The notes under the pieces are model-generated. The model made no database searches. It was not told the DNA's origin and was given only the letters and a program-made list of their open reading frames with translations. This document shows, piece by piece, positions 6,751 to 59,405 of a stretch of DNA of 59,405 nucleotides (positions are counted from its first letter, which is position 1; each line of letters begins with the position of its first letter). This DNA comes from [Clostridium] aminophilum. GTDB taxonomy: Bacteria; Bacillota; Clostridia; Lachnospirales; Lachnospiraceae. Where the stretch lies: the NCBI RefSeq assembly GCF_900101295.1, contig NZ_FOIL01000015.1, positions 1 to 59,405 on the forward strand. Reading direction: 5' to 3'. Position numbers and translations under genes: made by a program.

Positions 6751-6883
6751 AAGAGATATAATCGGTTCAACTTCAGGAGAGATCACCCGGAGGAATCGTA
6801 CAGCGGAATCCGATAACTTCGGATAAGGACGAAGCGGGGCCGCCGACCGTAACTCAAATATCATGACAGGGAGGATATAGACT

Positions 6884-8137: not shown

Positions 8138-8260
8138 GAAGAACTCCGAAAGGGAGGAAAGCCGCCGTCATGCTGCAGCCCGGCAACGTCAGAGAAGACC
8201 GCCGGGCTGCAGATGACATACGGACAAAACAGAACGGAATTCAGGAAGTGAGGACACCAG

Positions 8261-9655
8261 ATGGCAAAAATGTGGGCTGGACGATTCAGCAAGACAACCG
8301 ATAAGACCGTGGATGATTTCAATTCATCCCTTCCGTTTGACAACCGTCTTTATCGGGAGGATATCACCGGTTCGACGGCACATGCGAAGATGCTGGGAAA
8401 GCAGGGAATCATCCCGCAGGACGAGGCGGACCGCATCGTGAAGGAACTCGGCGTGATTCTGAAAGAGATCGAAGAGGGAAAGATTGCATTTTCCGATGAT
8501 GCGGAAGATATTCATATGTTTGTGGAGCAGATCCTGACCGAGCGGATCGGCGACGCGGGCAAACGGCTTCACACCTCGAGATCAAGAAACGATCAGGTTG
8601 CGCTGGACATGAGGCTGTATGTCAAAAAAGAGATCCGGAATATTCACGCGCTGATCCTCGACATGATGCAGGAGCTGAACAAATCAGCCGCAGAGCACAC
8701 GGAGACGGTGATGCCGGGATACACGCATCTTCAGAGAGCACAGCCGGTCACCTTCGGCCACTACATGATGGCTTATGCAAACATGCTGAAGCGGGATGTA
8801 AAGCGGCTGGAAAACACCTACGAGCTGATGGATGAAATGCCGCTGGGATCGGGCGCACTGGCCGGCACAACCTATCCCATCGACCGGGACTATGTTCGGG
8901 AGCAGCTGGGATTTGCGGCGGTGACCGAAAACTCGCTGGACGGGGTGTCGGACCGTGACTACTGCATTGAGCTATGCTCGGATCTGTCGATTCTGATGAT
9001 GCATCTTTCCCGTCTGTCGGAGGAGATCATCCTCTGGTGCTCCTGGGAATTCAAGTTTATCGAACTGGATGACGCATTTTCCACCGGAAGCTCCATCATG
9101 CCCCAGAAAAAGAACCCGGATGTGTGTGAGCTGATCCGCGGAAAGACCGGAAGAGTGTACGGCGCACTGATGACGTGCCTGACCTTCCTGAAGGGTCTCC
9201 CACTTGCCTACAACAAGGACATGCAGGAAGATAAGGAAGCGGTGTTCGACGCCATTGACACGGTAAAAATGTGCCTGAAGGTTCTGAAACCGATGTTTGA
9301 GACCATGACCGTTCTCCCGGAGAACATGAAGAGAGCAGCCAGCCGCGGATTTATCAATGCGACGGACTGTGCGGACTATCTCACCAAAAAGGGCGTTCCG
9401 TTCCGCGATGCGTACCATATCACCGGACAGCTTGTGGGCGAGTGCGTAAAGAAAGAGAAGGGACTGGGCGATCTGACACTGGAAGAATTTAAGGCTCACT
9501 CCGAAATATTCGGCGAGGATGTCTACCATGCCATTGACCTTTCCACCTGCGTAAAGGAGAGAAAGTCATTCGGCGGACCGGCACCGGAGGAAGTTGAGCG
9601 GCAGATCGGTGTGATCGGCAGATTTATCGAGGCACACCGGGCATTTGAATCATAA
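8261..9655 (+). CDS. argH: Argininosuccinate lyase
   Basis: 464 aa. The fumarate-lyase family signature GSSIMPQKKNPD is present, as is the N-terminal MWAGRFSKTTD typical of ArgH. Confidence 0.93.
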   Translation: MAKMWAGRFSKTTDKTVDDFNSSLPFDNRLYREDITGSTAHAKMLGKQGIIPQDEADRIVKELGVILKEIEEGKIAFSDDAEDIHMFVEQILTERIGDAGKRLHTSRSRNDQVALDMRLYVKKEIRNIHALILDMMQELNKSAAEHTETVMPGYTHLQRAQPVTFGHYMMAYANMLKRDVKRLENTYELMDEMPLGSGALAGTTYPIDRDYVREQLGFAAVTENSLDGVSDRDYCIELCSDLSILMMHLSRLSEEIILWCSWEFKFIELDDAFSTGSSIMPQKKNPDVCELIRGKTGRVYGALMTCLTFLKGLPLAYNKDMQEDKEAVFDAIDTVKMCLKVLKPMFETMTVLPENMKRAASRGFINATDCADYLTKKGVPFRDAYHITGQLVGECVKKEKGLGDLTLEEFKAHSEIFGEDVYHAIDLSTCVKERKSFGGPAPEEVERQIGVIGRFIEAHRAFES

Positions 9656-9687
9656 CCGAAGACCACGGAAGAGAAAGGCGGTATCCT

Positions 9688-10626
9688 ATGGCAAAACCTC
9701 TTGTATACATCGACGGACAGTCCGGAACAACGGGACTTCAGATTGCAGACAGACTTGGCAGCAGAACCGATATTGAGCTTTTGAAGATTTCGGACGAGAA
9801 GCACCGGGATGTGGAAGAGAGAAAGAGAATCATGAATGAGGCGGATATCGTGTTTTTCTGTCTGCCGGATGACGCGGCAAAGGAGGCCGCGGAGCTGGTG
9901 GTGAATCCCAAGACTCGCATCATTGACGCAGCGACCGTTCACCGTGTTGCCCCGGGCTGGGACTACGGGATTCCGGAACTCTCCGGGGAAAGAAGAGCAG
10001 CCATTGCGGCATCGAAGCGGGTGGCAAACCCGGGATGCCACGCCTCCGGCTTTGTGATTCCGGTCTACGCGCTGGTGGAAATGGGCGTGATCCCGAAGGA
10101 TCTTCCGCTGACCGCATTTTCCCTGACCGGTTACTCCGGCGGCGGAAAGAAGATGATCGCGGAGTATGAGGACGAAAACCGTCCGGCGGAGCTCTCAAGC
10201 CCGAGAATCTACGGACTGACCCTGAAGCACAAGCACATCCCGGAAATGCAGAAGATCTGCGGACTGACCCATGCGCCGGTATTTCTTCCGGTGGTGGATG
10301 ATTACTACAAGGGAATGGCAGTTACGCTGATGCTCCACAACAGCCAGCTCACCGGCGTAAAGAGTGCGCAGGATGTTCAGAAGAAACTGGAGGAGTGGTA
10401 TGCGGACGCAAAGATGGTGCAGGTCCACGGTTTTGGTTATGACGGCATGATTGCGGCCAATACCCTTGCCGGAAGCGACAAAATGCAGCTGATCGTGAAC
10501 GGTCACGAGGATCAGACCATTGTGACCGCACTGTTTGACAATCTTGGAAAGGGAGCCAGCGGTTCCGCTGTCCAGAACATGAATATCATGCTCGGCTTCG
10601 ACGAGACAGCCGGACTGAATGTGTGA
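9688..10626 (+). CDS. argC: N-acetyl-gamma-glutamyl-phosphate reductase (short, type 2 form)
   Basis: 312 aa. Rossmann N-terminus IDGQSGTTG. Active-site Cys in ANPGCHASG. Confidence 0.88.
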   Translation: MAKPLVYIDGQSGTTGLQIADRLGSRTDIELLKISDEKHRDVEERKRIMNEADIVFFCLPDDAAKEAAELVVNPKTRIIDAATVHRVAPGWDYGIPELSGERRAAIAASKRVANPGCHASGFVIPVYALVEMGVIPKDLPLTAFSLTGYSGGGKKMIAEYEDENRPAELSSPRIYGLTLKHKHIPEMQKICGLTHAPVFLPVVDDYYKGMAVTLMLHNSQLTGVKSAQDVQKKLEEWYADAKMVQVHGFGYDGMIAANTLAGSDKMQLIVNGHEDQTIVTALFDNLGKGASGSAVQNMNIMLGFDETAGLNV

Positions 10627-10706
10627 CGGCGCCGGATGATATCCGGGACCACGATCACAGAGAAACCGACAGGACAGGAACCGAAACAGAGTCAGGAGGA
10701 AAAGAT

Positions 10707-11573
10707 ATGACCATTATGCCGGAAGAGAGAGCAAAGATACTGGTTGAGGCGCTCCCGTATATTCAGGAATATACCGGACAGATCATTGTTGTGAAATACG
10801 GCGGAAACGCCATGACAAGCGAAGAACTGAAGCAGGATGTCATCAAGGACATCGTTCTTCTGAATATGCTGGGAATCCATGTGGTTCTGGTGCACGGAGG
10901 CGGCCCGGAGATCAGCGCGATGCTGAAGAAAATCGGACACGAATCGAAGTTCATCAACGGACTCCGTTACACCGATCAGGTGACCATGGACATCGTTCAG
11001 CAGATTCTCTGCGGAAAGGTCAATAAGAATCTGGTCAGCCTTCTGGACAAGGCAGGCGGCCACGGCGTGGGCCTCGGCGGTATGGACGGCGGTCTCTTCC
11101 GCGCAGTGAAGAAGGTGGATCCGGACGGAACCGATTACGGTCAGGTCGGAGATATTGTGGAGGTTCATCCGGAGATTGTGACGGATCTTCTGGCAAAGGG
11201 ATATATCCCGGTTGTGTCTTCGGTGGCAGCAGGCATGAATGATGACGAGAACTTTAACATCAATGCCGATACCGCAGCGGAGAAACTTGCCGTTGCACTC
11301 CACGCAAAGAAACTCATTCTTCTCACGGATGTCAAGGGGCTTCTCCGCGATCCGAAGGACGACAGCACCCTGATCCCGGAGCTGAAGGTTTCACAGGTTC
11401 CGGCACTGATCACGCAGGGCATCATTTCCGGAGGAATGATTCCGAAAGTGGACTGCTGTGTCGAGGCGGTACGTCAGGGCGTCGAGAGAGCAAACATTCA
11501 GGACGGCCGTGTGCCGCATTCCATCCTGATCGAGCTTCTGAGCTCCGAGGGTGTCGGAACCATGTTCTCATAA
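10707..11573 (+). CDS. argB: Acetylglutamate kinase
   Basis: Amino-acid kinase family motifs (IVVKYGGNAM, VLVHGGGPEI). An SD AGGAGGAAAAG precedes the ATG at 10707. The track ORF is extended upstream to 10623. Confidence 0.9.
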   Translation: MTIMPEERAKILVEALPYIQEYTGQIIVVKYGGNAMTSEELKQDVIKDIVLLNMLGIHVVLVHGGGPEISAMLKKIGHESKFINGLRYTDQVTMDIVQQILCGKVNKNLVSLLDKAGGHGVGLGGMDGGLFRAVKKVDPDGTDYGQVGDIVEVHPEIVTDLLAKGYIPVVSSVAAGMNDDENFNINADTAAEKLAVALHAKKLILLTDVKGLLRDPKDDSTLIPELKVSQVPALITQGIISGGMIPKVDCCVEAVRQGVERANIQDGRVPHSILIELLSSEGVGTMFS

Positions 11574-11600
11574 GTGCGGAAGAAAAGGGGGAGAAGAACG

Positions 11601-12788
11601 ATGAGTTTTCAGGAAATCAAAGATCGCGAGGCAACCTATGTCATGCAGACTTACGGCCGTTTTCCGGTGTGCTTCGATCACGGCGAGGGAGCGGTTCTTG
11701 TGGATGTTGACGGAAAAGAGTATGTGGATCTGACCAGCGGAATCGGTGTCAACTGTCTCGGTTATCACAACCCGAAGGTGACGGCGGCGGTGACGGAGCA
11801 GGCGAACAAGCTGATGCATGTCTCCAACCTTTACTATACCGAGCCGATGATCGACGCGGCGGAAAAACTGGTGAAAGCGACCGGCATGTCCCGCGTGTTC
11901 TTCGGAAACTCCGGCGCCGAGGCGAATGAGGGCATGATCAAGATCGCCCGCAAATATTCTCATGACAAATACGGCGAGGGCCGCAGCAAGATCGTAACGC
12001 TGGTGAATTCCTTCCACGGCCGTACCATCACCACACTGAAGGCCACCGGGCAGGAGCATTTCCACCATGATTTCTTCCCCTTTACCGAGGGATTCGATTA
12101 TGCGGAGGCCAATGATCTCGAGGATCTGAAGAAGAAAGCCGGAAAGGATACCTGCGGCGTGATGATGGAGCTGATTCAGGGGGAATCCGGCGTCCGCCCG
12201 CTGGATGCGGATTACGTGAAGGCGGCCTGCGAATTCTGCCGTGAAAACGACATTCTGTTCATGGTGGATGAGGTGCAGACCGGAATCGGGAGAAGCGGAG
12301 CGCTGTTCTCCTTCCAGAAATTCGGCGTGAAACCGGATGTGGTCAGCATGGCGAAGGGCCTCGGCGGCGGCCTTCCCATCGGCGCGGTCATGGTAGGCGA
12401 AAAGTGTGCGGATGTTCTCGGCAAGGGTGACCACGGAAGCACCTTCGGAGGAAGCCCCATGAGCTGTGCGGCGGCGTGTGCCGTTCTGGACGAGGTCACA
12501 AAGCCGGAATTTCTTGAGGAAGTGGAAAAGAAGGGCGAATACCTGAAAGAAAGTATCCTGGCCATCGGTTCTCCGGAGATTACGGATGTCCGCGGCATGG
12601 GTCTTATGCTCGGAATTGTGTTGAAGAATCCGGAAAACAGGCTTAAAATTGTAGGAGAACTTTTAAACCAGGGAGTAATGGTTCTGACAGCAGGTGAGGA
12701 TGTCATCCGTCTTCTTCCGCCGCTTGTCATTACCAGAGAGGAAATGGACCGCGCGGTAGCGGTTATGAAAAAGGTATTCGGATCATGA
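11601..12788 (+). CDS. argD: Acetylornithine aminotransferase (class III PLP aminotransferase)
   Basis: Class III aminotransferase fold. PLP-lysine region DEVQTGIGRSGALFSFQKFGVKPDVVSMAKGLGGG. An SD lies upstream of MSFQEIKD at 11601. Confidence 0.9.
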   Translation: MSFQEIKDREATYVMQTYGRFPVCFDHGEGAVLVDVDGKEYVDLTSGIGVNCLGYHNPKVTAAVTEQANKLMHVSNLYYTEPMIDAAEKLVKATGMSRVFFGNSGAEANEGMIKIARKYSHDKYGEGRSKIVTLVNSFHGRTITTLKATGQEHFHHDFFPFTEGFDYAEANDLEDLKKKAGKDTCGVMMELIQGESGVRPLDADYVKAACEFCRENDILFMVDEVQTGIGRSGALFSFQKFGVKPDVVSMAKGLGGGLPIGAVMVGEKCADVLGKGDHGSTFGGSPMSCAAACAVLDEVTKPEFLEEVEKKGEYLKESILAIGSPEITDVRGMGLMLGIVLKNPENRLKIVGELLNQGVMVLTAGEDVIRLLPPLVITREEMDRAVAVMKKVFGS

Positions 12789-13732
12789 ACAATCTGTTAA
12801 GACTTGTGGACTGCACTCCGGAAGAGATCACACAGATTCTCGATCTTGCGGATCAGCTGAAATATGAGAGCAGACACGGTATTGCTCACACGAGACTGTC
12901 CGGAAAATCGCTGGGCCTGATCTTCCACACGGCGTCCACCAGAACGAGAGTTTCGTTTGAGACCGGCATTTATCAGCTGGGCGGCCAGTCACAGTATCTG
13001 TCCGCCGATGACATGCAGATTTTCAACGGAGAACCGGTTCAGGATACGGCGAGGACACTTTCCCGTTATCTGAGCGGAGTGGTCATTCGTACCAGAAGGC
13101 AGCAGGAACTGGAAGCGTTCGCCAGATACAGCACGGTGCCGATCATCAACGGTATGACGGACCTCGCGCATCCCTGCCAGGTTCTGGCCGATCTCATGAC
13201 AATCCGGGAGAAATACGGCGTGCTGAACGGCCTGAACGCGGCGTACGTCGGCTCCGGCAACAACGTCTGCAATTCCTTTATCGTCGGTGCACTGAAGATG
13301 GGCATGAAGGTTCGCGTTGCGACTCCGCCGGGATACGGTCCGGACAACATTGCAAAGGATTTTGCAAAGGGCAATCCGGACTGTGAGTATTCCTACTCCC
13401 CGACCGAAGCGGTGAAGGATGCGGATGTGGTGGTGACCGGTTCGCTTCTTCCTCCGGGAGAAAAAGCGTCCACCGTTCAGATGCAGAAAGTCTTCCGCGG
13501 TTTTACGGTCAGCGAGCATATGCTCTCCGCCGCAAAACCGGATGTGCTGCTTCTGCACAGTCTGCCGGCCAACCGCGGATTTGAGATCACGGAAGAGACC
13601 TTTGAGAAACATGCGGAAGAGATCTTTGAGGAGGCGGAAAACCGTCTTCACGTGCAAAAGGCCGCCATGGTGCTTCTGATGGGCCGGGGCGCCGGCAGGA
13701 TTGAACCGATGAAAAAAGAAAAATTCGAGTAA
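12785..13732 (+). CDS. argF: Ornithine carbamoyltransferase-family protein with a non-canonical ornithine-binding loop (see findings)
   Basis: STRTR, HPCQ and an HSLP (HCLP-like) motif are present. The canonical DxxxSMG loop is replaced by DVVVTGSLLPPGEK. The gene is translationally coupled to argD (ATGA overlap). Confidence 0.8.
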   Translation: MNNLLRLVDCTPEEITQILDLADQLKYESRHGIAHTRLSGKSLGLIFHTASTRTRVSFETGIYQLGGQSQYLSADDMQIFNGEPVQDTARTLSRYLSGVVIRTRRQQELEAFARYSTVPIINGMTDLAHPCQVLADLMTIREKYGVLNGLNAAYVGSGNNVCNSFIVGALKMGMKVRVATPPGYGPDNIAKDFAKGNPDCEYSYSPTEAVKDADVVVTGSLLPPGEKASTVQMQKVFRGFTVSEHMLSAAKPDVLLLHSLPANRGFEITEETFEKHAEEIFEEAENRLHVQKAAMVLLMGRGAGRIEPMKKEKFE

Positions 13733-13741
13733 AGCGAGAGG

Positions 13742-13775
13742 CAGGTGTCCGAAACGGGACATCTGCTTTTCGGCC
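13742..13775 (+). terminator. Probable intrinsic terminator of the arg operon
   Basis: A hairpin aggtgtcc-gaaac-gggacatct is followed by GCTTTTCGG. A second T-run lies at 13790. Confidence 0.45.
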
Positions 13776-13824
13776 TGCAAAAGAGGAGTTTTTTTCTGCT
13801 TATCCGCAGAAGAAGGAGGACATT

Positions 13825-15186
13825 ATGGGACTGATTCAGGTTGCGGCAGCTTCGGCCGGAACAGTGCTGGCTGACCAGTGGAAAGAGTATTTCTACTGCC
13901 CGTCGCTGGACAATGATACACTGGCGGTAAAGGGACAGGTCAGACAGCAGAAGAGGGCATTCAACACCAAACGAACCGACAATATCATTTCACAGGGATC
14001 CATTGTCACGGTCAATGACGGCCAGTGCATGATCATCGTCGATCAGGGTGAGATCGTGGAGATCTGCGCGGAGCCGGGCGCATTTCAGTATGATCAGTCC
14101 ACCGAGCCGAGTATCTTTTACGGGGACCTGAAAGAGAGCGTCAAGGAGAGCTTTCGGCGCTTTGCACACCGCGTCGGCTTCGGCGGCGATACGGGCAATG
14201 ATCAGAGAGTGTATTATTTCAACACAAAAGATATTATCGGAAACAAATACGGCACGGCGACACCGATCCCGTTCCGCGTGGTGGACCGCAACATCGGACT
14301 GGATATGGATATCGCGATCCGCTGTCACGGCGAATACGCGTTCCGCATTACGGACCCGATCCTCTTTTATAAGAACATCTGCGGCAATGTGGAGAATGAT
14401 TATACGAAAGACCGGATTGAATCCCAGATGCGCAGCGAACTCCTGACTGCGCTTCAGCCGGCATTTGCAAAGATTTCGGAGATGGGCGTCCGCTACAGTG
14501 CCGTTCCGGCACATTCCATGGAACTTGGAAGGGCGCTGGATCAGGAACTGACGGAGAATTGGGGCGGACATTACGGAATCTCCATCACGGCAATCGGCGT
14601 CAATTCCATCACGGCTTCCGAGGAGGACGAGAAGACCATCAAGGAACTGCAGAAGAACGCGGTTCTCTCCAATCCGGCGATGGCGGCGGCACATCTGACG
14701 GCAGCACAGGCAGACGCCATGAAGGCAGCCGCCGCCAACACGTCCGCGGGACCGATGATGGCCTTTGCCGGGATGAACATGGCCAATATGGCCGGCGGAA
14801 TGAACGCGGGAAATCTGTTTGGAATGGCGGCACAGCAGGCAGCGGCACAGCAGGCAGCGCAGAGCGCGCCGGCGGGGATGGCCGGTGCACCGGCAGCATC
14901 CGCTTCGGCCGCCTGGGACTGTGCCTGCGGACATAAGGGCAACACCGGTAAATTCTGCTCGGAATGCGGAAAAGAGAGACCGCAGACGGGAGACCTGTTC
15001 TGGACCTGTTCCTGCGGCGCAAAAAACAAGGGCAAATTCTGCTCCGAGTGCGGAAAGGCGAAACCGGCCGGAATACCGCAGTACCGCTGTGATAAATGCG
15101 GCTGGGAGCCGGAAGATCCGGCCAGACCGCCGAAGTTCTGCCCGAACTGCGGCGACCCGTTTGATGACGGAGACATTGTCAGATGA
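13825..15186 (+). CDS. SPFH/Band-7 family protein (Band_7_1/YdjI-like) with an Ala/Gln-rich linker and four C-terminal zinc-ribbon motifs
   Basis: The N-terminal roughly 290 aa have the Band_7_1 pattern (WKEYFYCP...SQGSIVTVNDGQCMIIVDQGEIVEI). A low-complexity AAQQAAQ linker follows. The C-terminus carries CxCG...CSECG x2 and CDKCG...CPNCG zinc ribbons. Confidence 0.75.
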   Translation: MGLIQVAAASAGTVLADQWKEYFYCPSLDNDTLAVKGQVRQQKRAFNTKRTDNIISQGSIVTVNDGQCMIIVDQGEIVEICAEPGAFQYDQSTEPSIFYGDLKESVKESFRRFAHRVGFGGDTGNDQRVYYFNTKDIIGNKYGTATPIPFRVVDRNIGLDMDIAIRCHGEYAFRITDPILFYKNICGNVENDYTKDRIESQMRSELLTALQPAFAKISEMGVRYSAVPAHSMELGRALDQELTENWGGHYGISITAIGVNSITASEEDEKTIKELQKNAVLSNPAMAAAHLTAAQADAMKAAAANTSAGPMMAFAGMNMANMAGGMNAGNLFGMAAQQAAAQQAAQSAPAGMAGAPAASASAAWDCACGHKGNTGKFCSECGKERPQTGDLFWTCSCGAKNKGKFCSECGKAKPAGIPQYRCDKCGWEPEDPARPPKFCPNCGDPFDDGDIVR

Positions 15187-15288
15187 TCGGATGAGGCAAA
15201 CCTGGGAAGAATTATGTTCAAACTCTCTTTGATACTTCGGATACGTGCCTTGAATCATACATTCCGTGTCTGAGACAGGAGGAAACCA

Positions 15289-16443
15289 ATGGACGAGACC
15301 ACAAAGACGACGGAGACCTCCGGCGGATACCCGGATGCGGGATTGGAAGAGCCGAAGGAGGCCAGACAGGTCGAAGAGTCGAATAAAAAGTGTCCGCAGT
15401 GCGGAGCTCCTCTGATCTTTGATCCGAAGAGCTCCCGGCTGAAATGTGAGTTCTGCGGGTATGAAGAAGAGATCGAGGAAGACCGGGAACCGGACCGGCC
15501 GGAGGTGCTGGATTACGAGCATTCAGAGGAGACGGCATCCACGGACTGGGGACTGGAGACAAGAACGGTTGTCTGCCGTTCCTGCGGTGCCAGAAGCGTC
15601 TACGATGTCAATGCCATCGCGCAGGTCTGCCCGTACTGCGGAAGCACGCAGATTGTGGAAGCCGGCGATGCGGAGCAGAACGTCATGGCGCCGGGGGGCG
15701 TGATTCCTTTCGCCGTCGCCCGGAAGGAAGCGGCAGGACGGTTTACGCGGTGGATTAACGGAAAACTGTTCTGCCCGTCGCAGGCGAAGCAGAGCGCGCG
15801 GCCGGACGCATTTCAGGGCGTCTATCTTCCGTACTGGTCTTTTGACGCCGATTCTCACTCAGTTTATACCGGCCGATACGGGAGAGAGCGGACCGTGCAT
15901 AGCTCGGACGGAAAAAAGACACAGGTTGTGGTGGACTGGCATTCGACACGCGGCGAATTCTCCCTCCCGGTCCGGGATCAGATCGTCTGCGCATCGACCA
16001 AAAACAGTCAGGCGATGATCCGCGGGGTAGAACCGTTCCGGATGGAAGAGGCGGTGGTTTACAAGCCGGATTATCTTGCGGGATTTACGGCGGAGCGTTA
16101 TACCGTCCGCATGAAGGATGCATGGACTGAGGCAAAGGATATCCTTGAATCAAGAATGCGGAGTGAAGCGGCTGGGCGGATCCGGAGCCAGCATGTCTGT
16201 GACCGTGCGGAGGTCACCTCGATCCGGACGGATTATTCCGGGATCGGCTACCGTTATATTCTGCTTCCGGTCTGGATGTCATCCTTCCGCTACGGCGATA
16301 AAGTATACCGCTTTGTGGTCAACGGACAGACGGGCCGCGTCAGCGGCGATACGCCGGTTTCGGCTCTTCGCGTCGCAGCCGCGATTCTGATCGGTCTGGC
16401 CGTGGCATTCATTCTCTACTATCTGATCAACGGCGGTTTCTGA
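15289..16443 (+). CDS. Membrane protein with two N-terminal zinc-ribbon pairs and a single C-terminal TM helix (YdjG-like partner of the SPFH protein)
   Basis: CPQCG...CEFCG and CRSCG...CPYCG are followed by a roughly 250-aa soluble domain and a C-terminal hydrophobic helix LRVAAAILIGLAVAFILYYLI. It is co-directional with the SPFH gene and 100 bp downstream of it. Confidence 0.65.
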   Translation: MDETTKTTETSGGYPDAGLEEPKEARQVEESNKKCPQCGAPLIFDPKSSRLKCEFCGYEEEIEEDREPDRPEVLDYEHSEETASTDWGLETRTVVCRSCGARSVYDVNAIAQVCPYCGSTQIVEAGDAEQNVMAPGGVIPFAVARKEAAGRFTRWINGKLFCPSQAKQSARPDAFQGVYLPYWSFDADSHSVYTGRYGRERTVHSSDGKKTQVVVDWHSTRGEFSLPVRDQIVCASTKNSQAMIRGVEPFRMEEAVVYKPDYLAGFTAERYTVRMKDAWTEAKDILESRMRSEAAGRIRSQHVCDRAEVTSIRTDYSGIGYRYILLPVWMSSFRYGDKVYRFVVNGQTGRVSGDTPVSALRVAAAILIGLAVAFILYYLINGGF

Positions 16444-16532
16444 CCGAAACAGGTTATATTTCCGCTGCAAACTGTACAAAAATACGGTGCGGAGTGAATA
16501 TTGCGGTGTAAATTTGTTGAAATCATATCTGA

Positions 16533-16560
16533 TTGACAAGAATTTGACGTATGTTATAAT
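16533..16560 (+). promoter_or_regulatory. Sigma-A-type promoter of the rex-acpS-nnr operon
   Basis: TTGACA (16533-16538), a 16-nt spacer, then an extended -10 TGtTATAAT (16552-16560). A GC-rich structured leader (16563-16690) follows. Confidence 0.6.
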
Positions 16561-16693
16561 CAAAACTGACTAATCAGAGACGGGTCCCGCTTTGCGGGGT
16601 GCCGGGCGTTTGGCGTCAGCCGTCAGGGCCTTGTATCGTAAAGGACGAGGGCCGGCAGGCCGGTACGCGTAAATCAAAGTCTGTATGTCATAG

Positions 16694-17404
16694 ATGGATT
16701 TTGACAGAGAGAAGGTTTTAAAAGTGGAGCAGCAGAAGACAATTTCAAAGGCGGTAATCACTAGACTTCCGCGGTATTACCGGTATCTTGGAGAACTGAT
16801 TGAAGAAGGCGTTGAGCGGATTTCTTCCAATGATCTCAGTGTGCGGATGAAAGTTACGGCTTCCCAGATCCGTCAGGATCTTAACAATTTCGGCGGATTC
16901 GGGCAGCAGGGATACGGGTACAATGTAAAATATCTGTACTCGGAGATTGCCAAGATTCTGGGAATTGACCGTCAGCACAATCTGATCATTATCGGTGCCG
17001 GGAATCTCGGTCAGGCAATTGCCAATTACGCGAACTTTGAAAAACGGGGTTTTGTGCTGAAGGGAATGTTTGACGTAAACCCCCGTCTGGTGGGTCTTGT
17101 GGTCCGCGGCGTGGAAATTCGCGGAATCGATGATCTGGAAAACTTTATTCATGAGAATAACGTGCAGATTGCAGCGCTCACGATTCCGAAATCAAAAGCG
17201 GCGGAGATTGCACAGAGACTGGTGAATTCGGGCATTAAGGCAATCTGGAATTTTGCCCATGTGGATCTTCAGGTTCCGGATGATGTTGTTGTGGAGAATG
17301 TTCACTTGTCAGAGAGCCTGATGCGTCTGTCCTATCGTGTCTGTTCGCTTCAGGACAGGATGAAGCAGGAAGCCGAAAAGCTTCGAGAGATGGAAAATCA
17401 ATGA
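16694..17404 (+). CDS. rex: Redox-sensing transcriptional repressor Rex
   Basis: N-terminal winged-helix with RLPRYYRYL. The Rossmann NADH-binding domain has IIGAGNLGQA. Confidence 0.9.
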   Translation: MDFDREKVLKVEQQKTISKAVITRLPRYYRYLGELIEEGVERISSNDLSVRMKVTASQIRQDLNNFGGFGQQGYGYNVKYLYSEIAKILGIDRQHNLIIIGAGNLGQAIANYANFEKRGFVLKGMFDVNPRLVGLVVRGVEIRGIDDLENFIHENNVQIAALTIPKSKAAEIAQRLVNSGIKAIWNFAHVDLQVPDDVVVENVHLSESLMRLSYRVCSLQDRMKQEAEKLREMENQ

Positions 17405-54316: not shown

Positions 54317-54343
54317 GATAAGCATAACCATGAACAGCGGCAT
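54317..54343 (+). repeat. Left copy of the island-flanking 27-bp direct repeat (overlaps the polA terminator region)
   Basis: gataagCataaccatgaacagcGgcaT matches gataagTataaccatgaacagcAgcaG at 58983-59009 at 24 of 27 positions, in the same orientation. Confidence 0.8.
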
Positions 54344-54513
54344 GAGGCGATAACGCTTCGTGCTGCTGTTTTTTTGTGTGATGACGGCGATTTCAGCAAA
54401 AATAATTGCTTGAAAGGAACTGCATGTATTGCCTTGCAAGGGAAGCAATCTTCTTTTGTAAAGTAGCTGATTTGACAGGAAAGAATTGAATATTTGATAG
54501 GAGTTTAGAAAGT

Positions 54514-54595
54514 AAGGACCACTACCAATGAACGTTTCCATAATTGTTAGAACAAAAATCTAACGCATGGAGGTCATTACATGGTAGTGGTCCTT
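54514..54595. repeat. Perfect 14-bp inverted repeat (aaggaccactacca ... tggtagtggtcctt) with a 54-nt spacer containing a nested hairpin
   Basis: 54514-54527 against 54582-54595. The inner gttaga-acaaaaa-tctaac hairpin lies at 54546-54564. It sits in non-coding DNA at the left edge of the island. Confidence 0.7.
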
Positions 54596-54746
54596 GATTA
54601 TCTCGGATTCTTAGGAATTAGCTTGTTCGTCCTGAGGCGTGACTCAATATCGAGAGCGATCTACGAACGCTTTCCCAGAGATTAAGCGCATACCCATTTT
54701 TAAGGTCTTCGTGTTACGAAAAAAATGCCGAGAGATCCATTTATGG

Positions 54747-56657
54747 TTATTTCTCCACTTTTATAATAATATGATCAAAGCTGTCGTAGTTTATGGTTAA
54801 GAATACATCTCCGCCATGGAAAAAGTTCCGTTCCCACGTAGCTTTAAACTGTTTATCATTACTAACAACATCTGTAGTAAATCCCTTTTCCTTGCATTTC
54901 ATGATATAGTCCTCAATTTCGCTCTTCGTCAAGCCATAAACCGTTGCTTCAAAAGATTTATTTTCATCTTTTGTTAAGAAGCCGTAAACTGTTCCTCCTA
55001 TTCCATCCATTTCAGGAAGCACTGAAGTCATGCTTGGGGTTGTCCACTCAAATGTGCTACATATTACCGAGGCTTCTAGACAGTTTGAATTCCGAGCCAC
55101 AATTAAGTTGCTTTCATTTGTGGCTCTAAAAAAAGCGGTATTGCTAAATATATTGCAACGATATCCTGATTCTTGGCATTGTTTTGTGTAAGCCTCGAAA
55201 CGTGTTGAAGATACTTTGTCGAATGAAACAGTATTTCGATTTTCTTCGTTTATTAATACTTTGCCACCGCTCTCATATATTTGTGGAAAAACCTCTGAAA
55301 GTAATAATTCAGACCAATCAAAGCTTTTCTGGAAATCTATGGTCACCTCATCTGCATCACAGAAAACAGATAACCTCATTCCGTCTTTGTTGTATCCAAT
55401 AAAACTGTTTTTGCTTTGAATAACATTTTTGTTGTAACCGAATTCTACGCAACTATCAATGTATTCGTTTATGTAACTGTCTTCGGAATACTTAAGAGTT
55501 ACATTAAAAGCTTCATCTGTATTGATATGAGTTATTCCGGAATAAAAATATCCGGTGGGAATACAATTTGATAAGAACAGGCTATTCCATGCAAATGGGG
55601 GAACTATAGTGGTTTCAATATACTTGTCTCCTTGGACTATTTTGGCAAAATATCCACCTTGGTTAAATGCTTTATAACTTCGTCCATGATCTTCGCTTTC
55701 TATAGTGAAGCCTTTTTTCTTTATTTTGTCTATCCAAGAACCATAGTCTTTATCGGACTCATACTCGAATCCAAATTGCAAGAGGTCGCTAGTATCGCTG
55801 TACAGGACACCATTGATTGGGTCAAATTTCGGAACATACTTCGATAATACTCCAAGGTTATCCCATTCAATATATTTTCCATATTTTAACTCCGTGATTT
55901 TTTCCTTATAGTTGATTCTGCACATGAAGTATACAGAACCAGCAGTCATAAAAAGGCTCAGAATAAGAAAAAGAATACTCCCTGACGAACGAAAAAATCT
56001 TACTATTCTGAATCCAGCCAACACTGACGAAAGACATAATAAAATGGCAAGGATGCTCAAGACCATCGCAATGGGGCTTCCAAATATTTTCGCTAACGCA
56101 AAGATTATTATAAGAATAACTATTAAGGCAATGTCTATTTCCAATACTTGGGATTTTTGAAATGATTTACGTATCTCTTTTATTGAGGTGTTCATTTTTT
56201 CAGCCGCCACAGTTTTGGTTAGAAAGTTATCTACCGCTGTAATTCTTCCATATACTTCTTCTATACGTTGATCAGAGATACCGAGCGCTTTAGCCCTTTC
56301 ATAACAGTCGTCAGCTAAAACTTTATAGGCTTTTGCAAGTTTCAGTTCATCTTCCTGCAATTCACCATCACCGTTTTTGTCATAGTTTACTATCTGCTTA
56401 TTAGCAAGAATAAGAAATTCCAAAATATCTTCTTTGGTATTTTGGATGTGATAGTTCTCTATGAATGAGGTTTTTTCGTCTATTTCGGATTTCTTGTTTA
56501 ACTCTTTGATAAAGTCATTTATTGAATTGGTGGTGTTATTTTCTCTTATTTCAAAACCGCAGGCAGGACAGAAAGCACAAAACGATTCCAGATGAGCCCC
56601 ACAGTTTGGACATTTATAGATTTTCCCAAGGAATTGTATTTCTCGTTCTTCAGCCAT
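54747..56657 (-). CDS. Island membrane protein: an N-terminal zinc ribbon, a TM segment, and four tandem roughly 75-aa extracytoplasmic repeats
   Basis: CPNCG...CPACG at the N-terminus. Hydrophobic helices around residues 200-260. The C-terminal half has four repeats with the shared signature [ED]-x-Y-[IT]-x2-C-x-E-x-G-[FY] (WIDKIKKKGF, YIDSCVEFGY, YTKQCQESGY, YIMKCKEKGF). An SD AAGAGG lies upstream. Confidence 0.7.
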   Translation of the reverse strand: MAEEREIQFLGKIYKCPNCGAHLESFCAFCPACGFEIRENNTTNSINDFIKELNKKSEIDEKTSFIENYHIQNTKEDILEFLILANKQIVNYDKNGDGELQEDELKLAKAYKVLADDCYERAKALGISDQRIEEVYGRITAVDNFLTKTVAAEKMNTSIKEIRKSFQKSQVLEIDIALIVILIIIFALAKIFGSPIAMVLSILAILLCLSSVLAGFRIVRFFRSSGSILFLILSLFMTAGSVYFMCRINYKEKITELKYGKYIEWDNLGVLSKYVPKFDPINGVLYSDTSDLLQFGFEYESDKDYGSWIDKIKKKGFTIESEDHGRSYKAFNQGGYFAKIVQGDKYIETTIVPPFAWNSLFLSNCIPTGYFYSGITHINTDEAFNVTLKYSEDSYINEYIDSCVEFGYNKNVIQSKNSFIGYNKDGMRLSVFCDADEVTIDFQKSFDWSELLLSEVFPQIYESGGKVLINEENRNTVSFDKVSSTRFEAYTKQCQESGYRCNIFSNTAFFRATNESNLIVARNSNCLEASVICSTFEWTTPSMTSVLPEMDGIGGTVYGFLTKDENKSFEATVYGLTKSEIEDYIMKCKEKGFTTDVVSNDKQFKATWERNFFHGGDVFLTINYDSFDHIIIKVEK

Positions 56658-56719
56658 TTTGACCTCTTAATATAATAAAAAAATATTTGATGTAGGTGCC
56701 TTGATATGAAACAAATGCT

Positions 56720-58126
56720 TTATTTGTTCTCAGTTGGAATCGGGGGCATTTCGGTACCGTTACCTGTATTAGTTCCATTATTAAAAAGACCGAACAGGGC
56801 AGGAACGTCCCCGGCTTTAATCCAATTTACCATTCCTGATTTCCATACCAGTGTTTCTTTATTTATTTCGCCTGCTCCAATCATTTTAGCAAGTGTGATT
56901 AAATCATAAGGGCCAGTTGCCTGTCCATTAACTGCTACATTGTAACAAACTGAAGAAATATTGGACGGATTTGTATTTCCAGGCATTTTGGAACTGTTCA
57001 TTTGAGACATGGCACTATTCATTGTATTGGCAAGATTTTGACCAACAACGCTGCCTAATGTCATACTTGCCATTATTGAGGCCATATTTACACCATTGTC
57101 TGAGCATGAGCTTCCACCAAGATTTATATCGCCGGCGCCGTTCGAACCCATCTGACCTAAAGCATTTGCGCCTGCAATACCAACATCTGCCTGTTTCTCA
57201 GTCTGGAAAGCATCCATATTTGCGCTTTGAGTTTGTTTATGCCGAGCATATTGATCTTCTTCACGCTGTATTCTTAATGTTTCCTCAAGGTTTTCAATTT
57301 CTATTTGCTGCATATCACGAATGTTTTTAACTTTTGCCTCTTTTTCAGCATTAAGGGTAGCAATAGTGACATCCTTTGTGACTTCCATCAACTGTTTGTA
57401 GCCGAGACTTGTTTTATCAATCTCAATATTACTAATATCTAAATCGGATACTTCGATTCCAAATGATTCCCTGAATCTTTCGGTAATGACATATTCAATC
57501 TCATCGTTTATCTGTGCAATTTTACTTTCAATTTGAATCAGGGGAATATCATTCTTTGCAGGTGCGTTGATAACGATATCTTTAATATATCTATTGACAG
57601 CATTTCTGATTTCACTTTGCAGATTCTCAAGTTTAAAATCAATCAAACGATGCAATTTGATAAACTCTTTATAGTTACTTATCCTAAAAGTGATAGTTCC
57701 GTGAACAGCAACGGGGGTGCAGAAATCGGTAAATCTAGGATCATAAACATCGAAATAAGGAACGGCAAATTTCGTCTGAATGATTTTGGCGAGGTTAATA
57801 AAATAAATCTCAGCCTGAAAAGGCGAAACACCATCAAATGCTAGTCCGTAAATACTTGCTAAAACAGGAAAATTAGATGTCTTTATAGTCTGATCAAACG
57901 GTCCTTCGATATAATCTTGCATTAATCCATTCTTCTGCTTATATACAAAGACAGCTACTTCTCCGTCCTTGACTCGTAAGTGTGAATTCCAACGGATTTC
58001 ATTTTCTCTGTTGTTAGAGCCAGCAGGTGCGTCTGCCGGATGCCACTTCCAAATCAAGTAAGATCCTTCATCGCATCTTATTACATCCATGAAGCCGCCA
58101 GTTTTTGCGTGGTTGAATAATCTCAT
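56720..58126 (-). CDS. Island SPFH/Band-7 (Band_7_1, YdjI-like) protein with a C-terminal DUF4339 (GYF-like) domain
   Basis: The N-terminus resembles the Band_7_1 region of the protein at 13825. A coiled-coil middle follows, then a Gly/Asn/Ser-rich linker. The C-terminus CYNVAVNGQATGPYDLITLAKMIGAGEINKETLVWKSGMVNWIKAGDVPALFGLF matches the DUF4339 consensus. An SD GGAGG lies 9 nt upstream. Confidence 0.75.
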   Translation of the reverse strand: MRLFNHAKTGGFMDVIRCDEGSYLIWKWHPADAPAGSNNRENEIRWNSHLRVKDGEVAVFVYKQKNGLMQDYIEGPFDQTIKTSNFPVLASIYGLAFDGVSPFQAEIYFINLAKIIQTKFAVPYFDVYDPRFTDFCTPVAVHGTITFRISNYKEFIKLHRLIDFKLENLQSEIRNAVNRYIKDIVINAPAKNDIPLIQIESKIAQINDEIEYVITERFRESFGIEVSDLDISNIEIDKTSLGYKQLMEVTKDVTIATLNAEKEAKVKNIRDMQQIEIENLEETLRIQREEDQYARHKQTQSANMDAFQTEKQADVGIAGANALGQMGSNGAGDINLGGSSCSDNGVNMASIMASMTLGSVVGQNLANTMNSAMSQMNSSKMPGNTNPSNISSVCYNVAVNGQATGPYDLITLAKMIGAGEINKETLVWKSGMVNWIKAGDVPALFGLFNNGTNTGNGTEMPPIPTENK

Positions 58127-58200
58127 ATTTATCTGCCTCCTGTGCTGAATATGAGTATCTATTAGACTGCAAAAAAGATAAATAAAGAATATCTGATTAT

Positions 58201-58410
58201 TTACTCGTTAGTTTTAACTGCATCGCATATGTCTCCGATATTGCAATCAAAATAGTCGCATATACGCAAAAGTACTGATAACGCAACTTCTTCATTTCGA
58301 CGGAGCTTCGTCATCGTACCGGTTGCGATGCTTAAATCTTTTCTGAAATCAGCCTGTTGGATTCCCTTCTCGACAAGCATTAGCCATAGCTTTTTATAGC
58401 TAATCTCCAT
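58201..58410 (-). CDS. XRE-family (Cro/CI-type) helix-turn-helix transcriptional regulator, first gene of the island operon
   Basis: 69-71 aa with the HTH_XRE pattern (KLWLMLVEKGIQQADFRKDLSIATGTMTKLRRNE). An SD GGAGG lies 7 nt before the second ATG. Confidence 0.75.
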   Translation of the reverse strand: MEISYKKLWLMLVEKGIQQADFRKDLSIATGTMTKLRRNEEVALSVLLRICDYFDCNIGDICDAVKTNE

Positions 58411-58539
58411 TTGCATACCTCCAAATAGTGAACCAACCTTAAATTTATGTAGTCAAATAATTAAGTGAGTTATAAATTATAGATAAATTATAGAACACCA
58501 CCCATATTTTAGCGACAATCGTGATGAATATCAATACAA

Positions 58540-58581
58540 AGTTGCTAAAAATTCGCATGATGTTGCGAGCTTTTAGCAACT
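58540..58581. promoter_or_regulatory. Candidate operator: an 11-bp perfect inverted repeat upstream of the island XRE regulator
   Basis: aGTTGCTAAAA-20nt-TTTTAGCAACt lies 125-165 bp upstream of the XRE start in an AT-rich promoter region. Confidence 0.45.
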
Positions 58582-58890
58582 AAGCAAGCATATAATGGGG
58601 GTAATAAATCTATAGGGTAACGTTATTTATAAGATTCTGGATGCCAAGTCTGGGATCTGTTTTATGTGAAAATTGCACAAAATAACGGGGATTATAGCAC
58701 TGATTAGATGTGAGATAATATTGAAATTTTGTAAAATAATTTCTGATAATAACTAATATTATTAAAGGCCTAAATTTTAATATCTCCTTAGTGTTCGATA
58801 TTTCTCTATGGAACCCGCATAAAGTACAGGGGTTTCTGGATTATCCTACACTATGTAATTTGTTATGGATTGATATAGATTTTTTGTTTT

Positions 58891-58914
58891 GTGGCACTCG
58901 ATGTGGCACTCGAT
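58891..58914. repeat. Perfect 12-bp tandem duplication
   Basis: gtggcactcgat occurs twice in tandem. Confidence 0.8.
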
Positions 58915-58982
58915 GCATCCGAGATTTGGATATCCTAAAGGTTATTTTTTCAAACATTTGTTTCTCTGTAGATTAAGCCCAG

Positions 58983-59009
58983 ATAAGTATAACCATGAAC
59001 AGCAGCAGA
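58983..59009 (+). repeat. Right copy of the island-flanking 27-bp direct repeat; possibly the terminal inverted repeat (IRR) of the adjacent IS256-family element
   Basis: See the left copy. It lies about 50 bp from the transposase stop codon. It begins GATAAG-TATAA, reminiscent of IS256-type ends (GATAAAG...TATAA). Confidence 0.7.
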
Positions 59010-59060
59010 TAGTGTCAATAATTTTTCGCAAATTCATTTTCACCCGTCGGCTCACCATCG

Positions 59061-59405
59061 TTAACTGACTGCAGACTGATCGTCAACCTTGCGCTGAAGT
59101 TCCAGGTCGAAGAGGTGATTCATGTTCAGATATCGTTTGGATCCCCAGTTTGATGCGGCCACATGGCGCAGGCGAGCGCAGACCAACATCAGGGCACTTT
59201 GACCGTCCGGGAAAGCCCCAATCGCTTTTGTACGGCGCTTGATTTCCCGGTTAACCCGTTCTGTTGTATTGTTGGTTCGGATCCTGTTCCAGTGTTCGGT
59301 TGGATAGTCCATGTATGTGAGCGTCTCTTCGATGCCTTCTTCAACTTTATGCGCAGCTTGGGAAAGCTTCATTTCACGAAGCTTTTCAGCAACAGCGGCT
59401 GCTTT
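59061..59405 (-). CDS. IS256-family (mutator-type) transposase, C-terminal part; the N-terminus lies beyond the window
   Basis: The C-terminal region ...WNRIRTNNTTERVNREIKRRTKAIGAFPDGQSALMLVCARL... is characteristic of IS256/mutator transposases. The reading frame stays open to the window edge. Confidence 0.8.
   Translation of the reverse strand, partial: KAAAVAEKLREMKLSQAAHKVEEGIEETLTYMDYPTEHWNRIRTNNTTERVNREIKRRTKAIGAFPDGQSALMLVCARLRHVAASNWGSKRYLNMNHLFDLELQRKVDDQSAVS

Follow-up and report, generated by a model that had tools for sequence, protein, structure and literature searches.

Gene content of the locus

The window (i.e., the whole analysed stretch of 59,405 nt from [Clostridium] aminophilum) carries a minus-strand cassette of three genes at 54747–58416, located within an island of low GC content:

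54332-54371: polA terminator, upstream neighbour of the island (terminator scan)
54400..59000, unstranded: low-GC island (0.28–0.45) with the cassette (composition and terminator scan)
54747..56657, minus strand: 636-aa membrane partner (Pfam, AlphaFold2 (AF2) model, homology to the -1 gene)
56720..58126, minus strand: 468-aa soluble SPFH (Band_7_1) protein (Pfam)
58201..58416, minus strand: XRE-family HTH_26 regulator of 71 aa, first gene of the cassette (Pfam)
58417..58581, minus strand: putative promoter/operator region (consensus scan and repeat finder; pattern matches only)
58472-58493: tandem 11-nt repeat ATAAATTATAG x2 (repeat finder)
58534..58506, minus strand: promoter-like site TTGATA-17-TAAAAT (consensus scan)
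58540-58581: inverted repeat, 18 nt (repeat finder)
59061..59405, minus strand: IS256/Mutator-family transposase fragment at the contig end (Pfam Transposase_mut and NCBIfam IS256)

All three open reading frames (58416..58201, 58126..56720, and 56657..54747) are present in the window, in the order HTH_26, 468-aa protein (SPFH-GYF), and membrane partner; each is preceded by a Shine–Dalgarno site (GGAGG, AGGAGG, AAGAGG), and the genes lie 74 and 62 nt apart, confirming the operon proposed in the original prediction. Its domain assignments (HTH, SPFH/Band_7_1, DUF4339/GYF-like, zinc ribbon, TM helices, and repeats) are likewise borne out by Pfam and AF2. The GC content drops from ~0.53 to ~0.36 near position 54400, and the island has 36% GC vs. 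53% in the host. The IS256 fragment at the contig end, comprising only the C-terminal part, is the sole mobility gene seen in the window; tblastn with proteins of the mobilisable element that carries related cassettes (loci L007–L012, see below) gave no match here. Because of the GC contrast, the adjoining IS256 remnant, and the occurrence of relatives as cargo of mobilisable elements, the cassette is regarded as foreign to the host and horizontally acquired, as originally suggested.

The 71-aa protein matches HTH_26 with 62.5 bits (cutoff 22); the closest NCBIfam model is VanU, whose score of 64.6 bits lies far under the cutoff of 150. The regulator may repress or tune the operon from the AT-rich leader. 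Promoter-like sites in the leader are no commoner than in shuffled sequence.

The product of the second gene is built of an SPFH domain, a long helix, a Ser/Gly/Asn/Ala/Met-rich linker, a GYF_2 domain, and a C-terminal MPPIP:

57416..58009, minus strand: SPFH/Band_7_1 domain, aa 40-237 (Pfam PF13421)
56795..56938, minus strand: GYF_2 domain, aa 397-444 (Pfam PF14237)
56735..56746, minus strand: PPIP motif at the C-terminus, aa 461-464 (conservation)

Both domain matches are strong, with 83.4 bits for Band_7_1 (cutoff 24, E 2.3e-23) and 59.5 bits for GYF_2 (cutoff 25.8, E 2.7e-16), a family which we take to be the one earlier named DUF4339. The AF2 topology is of low confidence (pLDDT 52); besides an SPFH sheet, it has residues 241-326 as a helix and residues 395-449 as a GYF domain. 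Foldseek matches this model best with flotillin, prohibitin, stomatin, HflK/C, and the GYF domain of GltJ, and the GYF domains of GIGYF and Smy2 are also matched. Hence the SPFH assignment holds by both Band_7_1 and Foldseek. The sequence profiles of SPFH-GYF reach none of the solved SPFH structures, and the family profile matches the GltJ GYF structure (7z3c, E 2.5e-6). SPFH-GYF has no TM segment (top 19-residue Kyte–Doolittle score 1.09). PP[IVL]P motifs are found on the flanks of the GYF domain in 65–71 of 80 relatives and within the last 16 residues in 71 of 80, with P461 and P464 invariant among homologues; the window protein has no PPxP before the GYF domain. The C-terminal PPIP may be a ligand of the GYF domain or serve in docking.

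The membrane partner (WP_074649260.1, annotated as "zinc ribbon domain-containing protein") combines a cytosolic part (zinc ribbon and helical bundle) with three TM helices and, towards the C-terminus, four DUF6591 repeats:

56550..56615, minus strand: C4 zinc ribbon, aa 15-36 (Pfam and alignment)
56157..56528, minus strand: conserved cytosolic helical domain, aa 44-167
55884..56141, minus strand: three TM helices, aa 173-258 (AF2 and Kyte–Doolittle)
54750..55874, minus strand: four tandem DUF6591 repeats (units 55593-55874, 55320-55592, 55050-55319, and 54750-55049)

The ribbon matches Zn_Ribbon_1 at aa 15-36 slightly below the cutoff (21.6 bits), and its residues C16, C19, C30, and C33 are invariant among homologues. 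Most homologues carry two ribbons, of which this is the second; the additional N-terminal one and the P-I-P-N motif of the family are absent from the window copy. Kyte–Doolittle analysis gives three hydrophobic segments at aa 166-236. The TM2–TM3 loop is Arg-rich, which fits an N-in/C-out topology, and therefore the repeats are probably extracytoplasmic. DUF6591 (PF20234) is matched in four stretches (87.5 bits, cutoff 27.1), confirming the repeats, which are 21–28% identical in pairs (best E 5.8e-10). Two details of the original prediction need correction: the repeat period is ~90 aa, not ~75 aa, and the signature Y-x3-C-x-E-x-G-[FY], thought to be common to all four repeats, is present in three.

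Distribution and divergence of the cassette family

At least 567 species have SPFH-GYF in their genomes; they belong to the Clostridia, the oral streptococci, and some Actinobacteria. More than 8000 homologues are ~64% identical to the window protein. A homologous zinc-ribbon membrane gene lies directly upstream (-1) in 77 of the ~80 loci examined, with a median gap of 13.5 nt (≤30 nt in 66 of 74); partners retrieved separately as homologues of the 636-aa protein likewise adjoin SPFH-GYF. A homologous HTH gene on the same strand precedes the pair in 46 of 57 relatives with enough upstream sequence. The canonical order in relatives is HTH, partner, SPFH-GYF, and compared with this coupled arrangement the order and the 62-nt gap in the window are atypical. 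Thus, the three-gene system was recognised correctly, but the window is a rearranged copy of it rather than its type.

The atypical order, together with the missing upstream partner gene, first zinc ribbon, and pre-GYF proline motif, could mean that the window copy is a decaying remnant without function, its mobility genes lost through IS256 activity; an IS256 fragment indeed adjoins the cassette, and the recombinase is absent. We consider this explanation very improbable. The three open reading frames are intact and retain their Shine–Dalgarno sites; the same arrangement is found again at 98–100% identity in independent samples; and the comparison of two samples yields pN/pS of 0.22–0.33 for the three genes, a range based on few substitutions. 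All three genes are thus intact and under purifying selection between the two samples. A second sample shares polA and the cassette (98.5% identity) as far as position 58618, beyond which the sequences diverge.

The two proteins of the pair differ strongly in their conservation. SPFH-GYF relatives are ~55–65% identical across phyla. The N-terminal module of the partner forms 888 clusters at 50% identity, and in loci where SPFH-GYF is 95% identical the partner N-termini are just 46–67% identical, while the ectodomains are unrelated or absent. Of 106 partner proteins from relatives, 26 have DUF6591, and 31 of 71 partners have no ectodomain. By these comparisons, SPFH-GYF is highly conserved, the partner evolves fast and swaps or loses its ectodomain, and the four-repeat ectodomain of the window is one of many interchangeable heads and not a defining feature of the cassette.

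Comparison with known SPFH, GYF, and zinc-ribbon proteins

A membrane-protein operon partner is a recurrent theme for bacterial SPFH genes. Similar to the HflK/C–FtsH, flotillin, prohibitin, and stomatin–NfeD cages, SPFH-GYF has a long helix after its SPFH domain; unlike these, it lacks an anchor of its own (TM helix or hairpin), and the cassette has no protease or NfeD partner.

The closest parallel is the PspA–YdjGHI system of Bacillus subtilis, whose ydj operon belongs to the sigma-W regulon. As in that system, the window cassette encodes a soluble Band_7_1 protein with a low-complexity linker, and the SPFH gene lies beside that of a membrane protein with a cytosolic N-terminal zinc ribbon. 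[quoted passage not shown] In Bacillus, it is the membrane proteins that recruit their SPFH partner to the membrane (PMC8581546; also the abstract of a preprint). The same preprint abstract reports that loss of SamI leads to a SamG–SamH imbalance (bioRxiv 10.64898/2026.02.06.704340). The differences are several: the cassette has three genes, with neither pspA (its absence had been noted in the original prediction) nor a recognisable YdjH-type second membrane protein (there is no fourth gene); its SPFH protein ends in GYF_2 and PPIP and not in zinc ribbons as YdjI does; its regulator is an XRE-type HTH; and it is mobile, spread over hundreds of species, and has a hypervariable partner.

The window also contains a chromosomal pair that is closer to YdjI/YdjG than the island pair:

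13825..16443, plus strand: chromosomal analogue pair, YdjI/YdjG-like (Pfam, translations, pairwise BLASTP)

Here, a 453-aa protein has Band_7_1, an Ala/Gly/Met-rich linker, and three C-terminal zinc ribbons, and a 384-aa protein has a TFIIB-type zinc ribbon and a C-terminal TM helix. The resemblance of the two pairs, previously described as a duplicated architecture, holds for the architecture but not for the sequence: the SPFH proteins are only 19% identical, and the similarity of the membrane partners is limited to CxxC motifs. The island partner matches Zn_Ribbon_1/DZR and not Zn_Ribbon_TF, and is rejected as a YdjG homologue, given this mismatch and the CxxC-only likeness to the YdjG-like protein of the window.

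GltJ of Myxococcus, a ZnR-linker-GYF switch, has a domain of the same GYF_2 family, and there, too, a zinc ribbon occurs together with a GYF domain on the cytosolic side of a membrane protein. A proline-rich sequence is bound by the GYF domain of GltJ, and a zinc ribbon lies next to the GYF domain in 44% of bacterial GYF proteins (PMC11135422); proline stretches alongside and TM proteins as neighbours are also described for bacterial GYF domains (PMC2034487). Unlike GltJ, the cassette splits the zinc ribbon and the GYF domain between two proteins of one operon, and the MglA, MglB, and AglZ partners are absent; the NCBIfam GltJ model gives 19 bits vs. cutoff 450.

TcaA of Staphylococcus aureus has the same overall layout as the partner, with the zinc ribbon at a cytosolic N-terminus, followed by membrane span(s) and a domain outside the cytoplasm. 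We know of no pairing of TcaA with an SPFH gene, and the partner is not assigned to TcaA (NF053815), as it scores 14.9 bits vs. cutoff 550 and matches in the ribbon only. TcaA is linked to envelope-active antibiotics (eLife RP87026).

Genomic contexts and proposed function

Taken together, the best reading of the cassette, to which we give an even chance, is a mobile analogue of YdjG/H–YdjI (SamGHI), in which a membrane protein docks a soluble SPFH scaffold. The partner would insert N-in, placing the ribbon and the helical bundle in the cytoplasm and the four DUF6591 repeats outside. SPFH-GYF, having no anchor of its own, would be docked by the conserved cytosolic module of the partner, with aa 44-167 as the proposed surface; this is suggested by the near-obligate adjacency and coupled spacing of the two genes and by the analogy with YdjG/YdjH–YdjI. 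Through its SPFH domain and long helix, the protein may oligomerise to give a flotillin/HflK-like assembly; assembly or client binding may involve the GYF domain and the flanking PPxP motifs, and the ectodomain could be an exchangeable head for sensing or wall contact. As its output, the cassette might exert local control over the membrane or over the partner, to the benefit of host or mobile element when the envelope is attacked. The anchor-plus-scaffold mechanism as such is rather probable; that its physiological role is to protect the envelope, as opposed to a dedicated immune function, is plausible, yet falls short of an even chance. Several observations speak against the YdjGHI-like reading: the window copy has no first ribbon, pre-GYF PPxP, or P-I-P-N; its gene order and 62-nt gap depart from the coupled arrangement; its partner is not homologous to YdjG beyond CxxC motifs; and YdjH-like and PspA components are lacking.

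Relatives sit in varied surroundings, in which genes of mobile elements or of defence are frequent. The 139 flanking proteins of relatives are spread over 172 Pfam families, i.e., homologues do not sit in one conserved housekeeping operon, and PspA is not among the 25 commonest of these families. In L007–L012, the cassette occupies the cargo slot of a mobilisable element (TnpV, cassette, MobC, relaxase, and large serine recombinase) at six different insertion sites; the element presumably resembles Tn4451. A serine recombinase, TnpV, or relaxase is found within 10 kb in at least 23 of 80 species loci, and tyrosine integrases and Mob_Pre also occur among flanking genes. Hence, the cassette might serve the mobile element itself, e.g., against envelope stress in conjugative mobilisation, in surface or entry exclusion, or in sensing the recipient or host. 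This is improbable, since many loci have no mobility gene in reach (the window just the IS256 remnant), streptococcal copies have a chromosomal mutS–mutL context, and no conjugation-machinery gene is conserved beside the cassette in the flanking genes of relatives.

The flanking defence genes include AbiLi (three), AbiH (two), AbiD, AriA-like genes (four), ThsB, an OLD-type ATPase, and methyltransferases; Hachiman genes adjoin one insertion of the element (L009), and one cassette is interrupted by a DUF4011 helicase–nuclease gene. The neighbour sets thus contain Abi, PARIS-like, Thoeris, and RM genes. A phage genome carries the partner/SPFH-GYF pair beside an anti-Thoeris gene, and in oral streptococci, the one group with a fixed context, the pair lies between mutS and mutL, with the repressor absent. 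PADLOC-DB v2.0 gives no match for the HTH protein or SPFH-GYF and a chance-level match to SduA for the partner (E 0.0034), and no paper describing the cassette was found in the literature, in line with the view that the system had not been described.

Such neighbours, the DUF4011 insertion, carriage by mobilisable elements, and the XRE repressor at the head would suit an immune or exclusion system against phages and other mobile elements, in which the hypervariable ectodomain or TM part of the partner senses the invader at the envelope and an SPFH-GYF cage keeps the partner inactive until triggered; its release would permeabilise the membrane (abortive infection) or block DNA entry. The rate contrast within pairs (SPFH-GYF 95% identical, partner N-termini 46–67%) is typical of conflict genes, the 888 partner clusters vs. 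~55–65% identity of SPFH-GYF pointing the same way, and in Bacillus, according to the preprint abstract, SamI loss unleashes SamG/H activity. Nevertheless, we regard this explanation as a minority possibility: no PADLOC model fits any of the three proteins; the cassette has no recognisable enzymatic effector; the partners without ectodomain and the stable, repressor-free streptococcal copy are at odds with it; the phage copy suits a phage-beneficial function equally; and defence genes are expected near any cargo of mobile elements, the neighbour counts being raw. The defence or abortive-infection reading is compatible with the data, with support no better than that for envelope protection, while fast partner evolution, ectodomain swaps, and defence neighbours match a conflict function more closely than they do plain housekeeping protection.

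In summary, the window holds one copy of a very widespread cassette family without earlier study. It is unlikely, though conceivable, that the family represents an immune or exclusion system of a new class, which acts at the level of the envelope and is carried by mobile elements in Gram-positive bacteria of the gut and mouth. In such a system, the hypervariable partner would detect a phage, a conjugative element, or a membrane-active toxin, the conserved SPFH-GYF cage would gate it, and its release would lead to a permeabilised membrane or blocked entry; if true, this would be the first SPFH scaffold regulating a bacterial immune effector.

Island and gene layout

The three genes of the cassette, coding for an HTH regulator, an SPFH protein with a C-terminal GYF domain (SPFH-GYF) and its membrane partner, are co-directional, each is preceded by a Shine–Dalgarno sequence, and the intergenic gaps are 74 and 62 nt. 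The block is bounded by the polA terminator and a fragment of an IS256-family transposase gene:

54332–54371: polA terminator, one border of the three-ORF block (terminator scan)
56657..54747, minus strand: membrane partner, 636 aa (ORF, Pfam)
58126..56720, minus strand: SPFH-GYF, 468 aa (ORF, Pfam)
58416..58201, minus strand: HTH_26 regulator, 71 aa (ORF, Pfam)
within 58440–58600: tandem ATAAATTATAG repeat and an 18-nt inverted repeat, candidate target region of the HTH regulator
59061–59405, minus strand: C-terminal fragment of an IS256/Mutator-family transposase, running off the contig end

The window is one entire contig (59,405 bp), which an exact protein match assigns to [Clostridium] aminophilum. 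Its composition changes at ~54400, where GC falls from ~0.53 to ~0.36, and stays low as far as ~59000; no tRNA gene or Rfam family was found in or beside this island. As the contig stops within the IS256 fragment, the island cannot be followed to its right edge. The first ~200 bp of the island, with the polA terminator on one side and the cassette end on the other, carry a perfect 14-nt inverted repeat, AAGGACCACTACCA (54514–54527) and TGGTAGTGGTCCTT (54582–54595), with a 54-nt spacer, which could be an insertion scar or an attachment site. The non-coding stretch from the cassette leader to the IS256 fragment contains an exact tandem duplication, TGTGGCACTCGA twice, at 58890–58913.

A 4468-bp contig of a Logan assembly (L093, run SRR4140257) is 100% identical to window positions 54397–58864 and stops there at both ends, hence, the assembly graph breaks near the island edges. 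In a second sample (L001), polA and the cassette are shared with the window at 98.5% identity up to 58618, and the sequences diverge beyond, so the right flank is polymorphic between strains; here, L001:1–1440, set against window 58619–59405, holds 1.4 kb of further DNA of low GC, in which a 276-aa ORF is without a Pfam match. The cassette copy in the window is intact, recurs in other samples at 98–100% identity, and has pN/pS of 0.22–0.33; that it is a dead remnant is very improbable.

Conserved SPFH-GYF and diversifying partner

The 468-aa protein comprises Band_7_1 (aa 40–237) and GYF_2 (aa 397–444) domains by Pfam. Hydropathy shows three hydrophobic segments in the partner but none in this protein. 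Its alignment, though deep, lacks diversity, which left the AlphaFold2 (AF2) model poor (pLDDT 52); this low-confidence model comes structurally closest to flotillin, prohibitin, stomatin, HflK/C, and the GYF domain of GltJ. The family profile, compared with the PDB, matches only the solved GltJ GYF domain (E 2.5e-6). Given the Pfam, structural and profile matches, the original prediction of an SPFH-domain protein holds, and the alternative, that the 468-aa protein is not SPFH-like or that a known enzyme family is involved, fails. A PP[IVL]P motif is found at the extreme C-terminus of 71 of the 80 SPFH-GYF proteins and directly before the GYF domain in 65; these motifs around the GYF domain are candidate intra- or inter-subunit ligands.

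In the 636-aa partner, Pfam identifies a zinc ribbon (aa 15–36) and four DUF6591 stretches. Its AF2 model (mean pLDDT 64) features a confident cytosolic helical bundle at aa 44–167 (pLDDT ~90), three TM helices at aa 173–258, and two repeats of moderate confidence, built as strand–strand–helix and then four strands; the remaining two repeats are modelled poorly. The partner sequence profile finds only zinc ribbons in the PDB. Similarities of the cassette proteins to TcaA and VanU are sub-threshold and were excluded from the assignment.

The cassette is no isolated case but a widespread family. Databases contain more than 8000 relatives of SPFH-GYF at ~62–67% identity, and at least 567 species have one when a single genome of each species is scanned; among the carriers are Lachnospiraceae, Oscillospiraceae, Ruminococcus, Sedimentibacter, Peptoniphilus, Streptococcus sanguinis and S. 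gordonii, Gardnerella, Actinomyces, and Olsenella. A homologue of the N-terminus of the 636-aa protein lies directly upstream of SPFH-GYF in 77 of the 80 fetched loci, and also downstream in 19; the partner-to-SPFH gap has a median of 13.5 nt and does not exceed 30 nt in 66 of 74 cases. Partners reached independently, via the 636-aa protein, likewise adjoin SPFH-GYF. Where the upstream sequence is long enough (57 loci), the cassette opens with the HTH_26 gene in 46. A consensus partner consists of a pair of zinc ribbons, a helical domain conserved in the motifs [FY]x[IV]PN[TS]KEDILEF and AW..K.EQ.Y.KA, one to five TM helices, and a C-terminal part that varies. The copy in the window departs from this pattern: its order is HTH, SPFH-GYF, partner, the partner lacks the first zinc ribbon and the P-I-P-N motif, and SPFH-GYF lacks the pre-GYF proline motif.

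The two proteins diversify unequally. In pairs of loci with 95% identical SPFH-GYF, the cytosolic domains of the partners are 46–67% identical, and the ectodomains are unrelated or absent. The N-terminal module of the partner alone matches 888 clusters at 50% identity (E<=1e-10), with proteins of 149–1317 aa. TM helices are predicted in 71 partners, of which 31 end within 30 residues of the last helix and 36 extend more than 100 residues beyond it. Pfam domains in 106 partner proteins are DUF6591 (26), DUF4839 (5), TM2 (3), and PASTA (1); LRR_5 heads also occur. As the ectodomains are variable or absent across relatives, the four-repeat ectodomain, highlighted in the original prediction, is an exchangeable head rather than the core of the system.

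Gene content also varies locally. An extra small zinc-ribbon protein (~150 aa) is encoded between the HTH and main partner genes in locus L097 (4527–4982, with a TM2 domain), and similarly in L023, L026, and L027. In another locus (L096:1225–4983), a gene for a 1252-aa DUF4011/AAA_11/AAA_12/MTES_1575 helicase-nuclease splits SPFH-GYF from an LRR_5-headed partner.

Known relatives and proposed mechanism

As membrane organisers, SPFH proteins are universal; little is understood of what they do in bacteria, and within the Band_7_1 branch, to our knowledge, only YdjI/SamI has been studied. The experimentally studied analogue of the cassette is PspA-YdjGHI (SamGHI) of B. subtilis, where membrane foci of YdjI require the membrane proteins YdjG and YdjH, and YdjI then recruits PspA (PMC8581546). 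According to a preprint, the loss of SamI unbalances SamG–SamH signalling (bioRxiv 10.64898/2026.02.06.704340).

The host chromosome carries its own YdjI/YdjG-like pair (13825–16443, plus strand), consisting of a Band_7_1 protein and a membrane protein with a TFIIB-type ribbon. The chromosomal Band_7_1 protein ends in three zinc ribbons, and its linker is Ala/Gly/Met-rich, as in the island SPFH-GYF; the two are only 19% identical. No pspA gene is adjacent to the chromosomal pair; its neighbours are an ornithine/aspartate carbamoyltransferase-family gene, by our reading part of the arginine-biosynthesis genes, on one side and a Rex-like repressor gene on the other.

Bacterial GYF domains are also documented: the ligand of the GltJ domain is a proline-rich sequence, and a switch function has been proposed for zinc ribbon/GYF pairs (PMC11135422), while Balaji and Aravind noted flanking proline-rich stretches and neighbouring TM proteins and already listed the SPFH+GYF architecture (PMC2034487). 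The domains and this architecture are known.

The cassette probably belongs with modules of an SPFH scaffold plus a membrane anchor. Because of the YdjGHI precedent and the YdjI/YdjG-like pair on the host chromosome, we propose that the island partner would dock SPFH-GYF at the membrane via the conserved cytosolic module; docked SPFH-GYF would then oligomerise as other SPFH proteins do. Such an anchor-plus-scaffold mechanism is likely.

Genomic contexts and possible roles

A 64%-identical relative occupies the cargo position of a ~11-kb mobilisable element (L007, a gut metagenome locus, ~6000–16800), in the order TnpV, HTH, partner, SPFH-GYF, another zinc-ribbon protein (with DUF4839), MobC, relaxase, and a DUF4368-containing large serine recombinase. 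The element, which we take to resemble Tn4451, is seen at six different chromosomal insertion sites in gut metagenomes (L007–L012); its mobility genes were not found in the window. In L009, it adjoins Hachiman genes (HamA and helicase). A serine recombinase, TnpV or relaxase lies within 10 kb in at least 23 of 80 species loci. That the cassette is an accessory of mobile-element transfer is very unlikely. No close copies were found in the plasmid collection, and the phage collections yielded only one unannotated 'Bacteriophage sp.' record and two IMG/VR contigs; hence, plasmids and phages are not the usual carriers of the cassette. A genuine phage contig (L095, with TerL, DUF2800, and MazG) carries at 6303–11275 a 260-aa double-zinc-ribbon partner and SPFH-GYF at 51% identity, ~2 kb downstream of a Tad3-family anti-Thoeris gene.

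The two nearest genes on each side of the cassette encode 139 proteins spanning 172 Pfam families, most commonly phage integrases, tRNA U5-methyltransferase, AAA_21, relaxases, and recombinases; PspA is absent from the 25 commonest. PADLOC models among these proteins are AbiLi (three), AbiH (two), AbiD, AriA-like (four), ThsB, an OLD-type ATPase, and several methyltransferases; the three cassette proteins match no PADLOC model. A conflict function, i.e., defence (abortive infection) or exclusion, would fit such mobile and defence-rich neighbourhoods, the extreme diversification of the partner, the repressor in the cassette, and the SamI precedent, in which an SPFH protein restrains its own membrane partners; we consider it rather unlikely.

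The S. sanguinis and S. gordonii loci (L062, L069, L078, and L085, ~6000–13500) have the partner and SPFH-GYF genes, without HTH, in the mutS–mutL interval downstream of argR. The stability of these streptococcal copies, the YdjGHI precedent, the absence of an enzymatic effector from the cassette, and the many partners without an ectodomain are consistent with envelope surveillance or protection as mobile cargo, a role that we put forward tentatively.

We found no description of the cassette, the conserved partner, its mobility or the evolutionary asymmetry in the literature; a paper on stlA salt tolerance was rejected as such, since DUF4339 is named there only for an unrelated neighbouring gene. 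Existing annotation of the cassette genes reads only 'SPFH domain-containing' and 'zinc ribbon domain-containing'. Here, a GYF-ended Band_7_1 protein moves among hundreds of Clostridia, streptococci, and Actinobacteria, nearly always accompanied by a zinc-ribbon membrane partner of far faster diversification. With two or three genes, this compact system is suited to studies of soluble SPFH scaffold recruitment and of ligands of bacterial GYF domains, and lets one ask whether SPFH assemblies of mobile elements serve envelope protection or immunity; the natural copy in the genetically tractable S. sanguinis and S. gordonii makes tests feasible.
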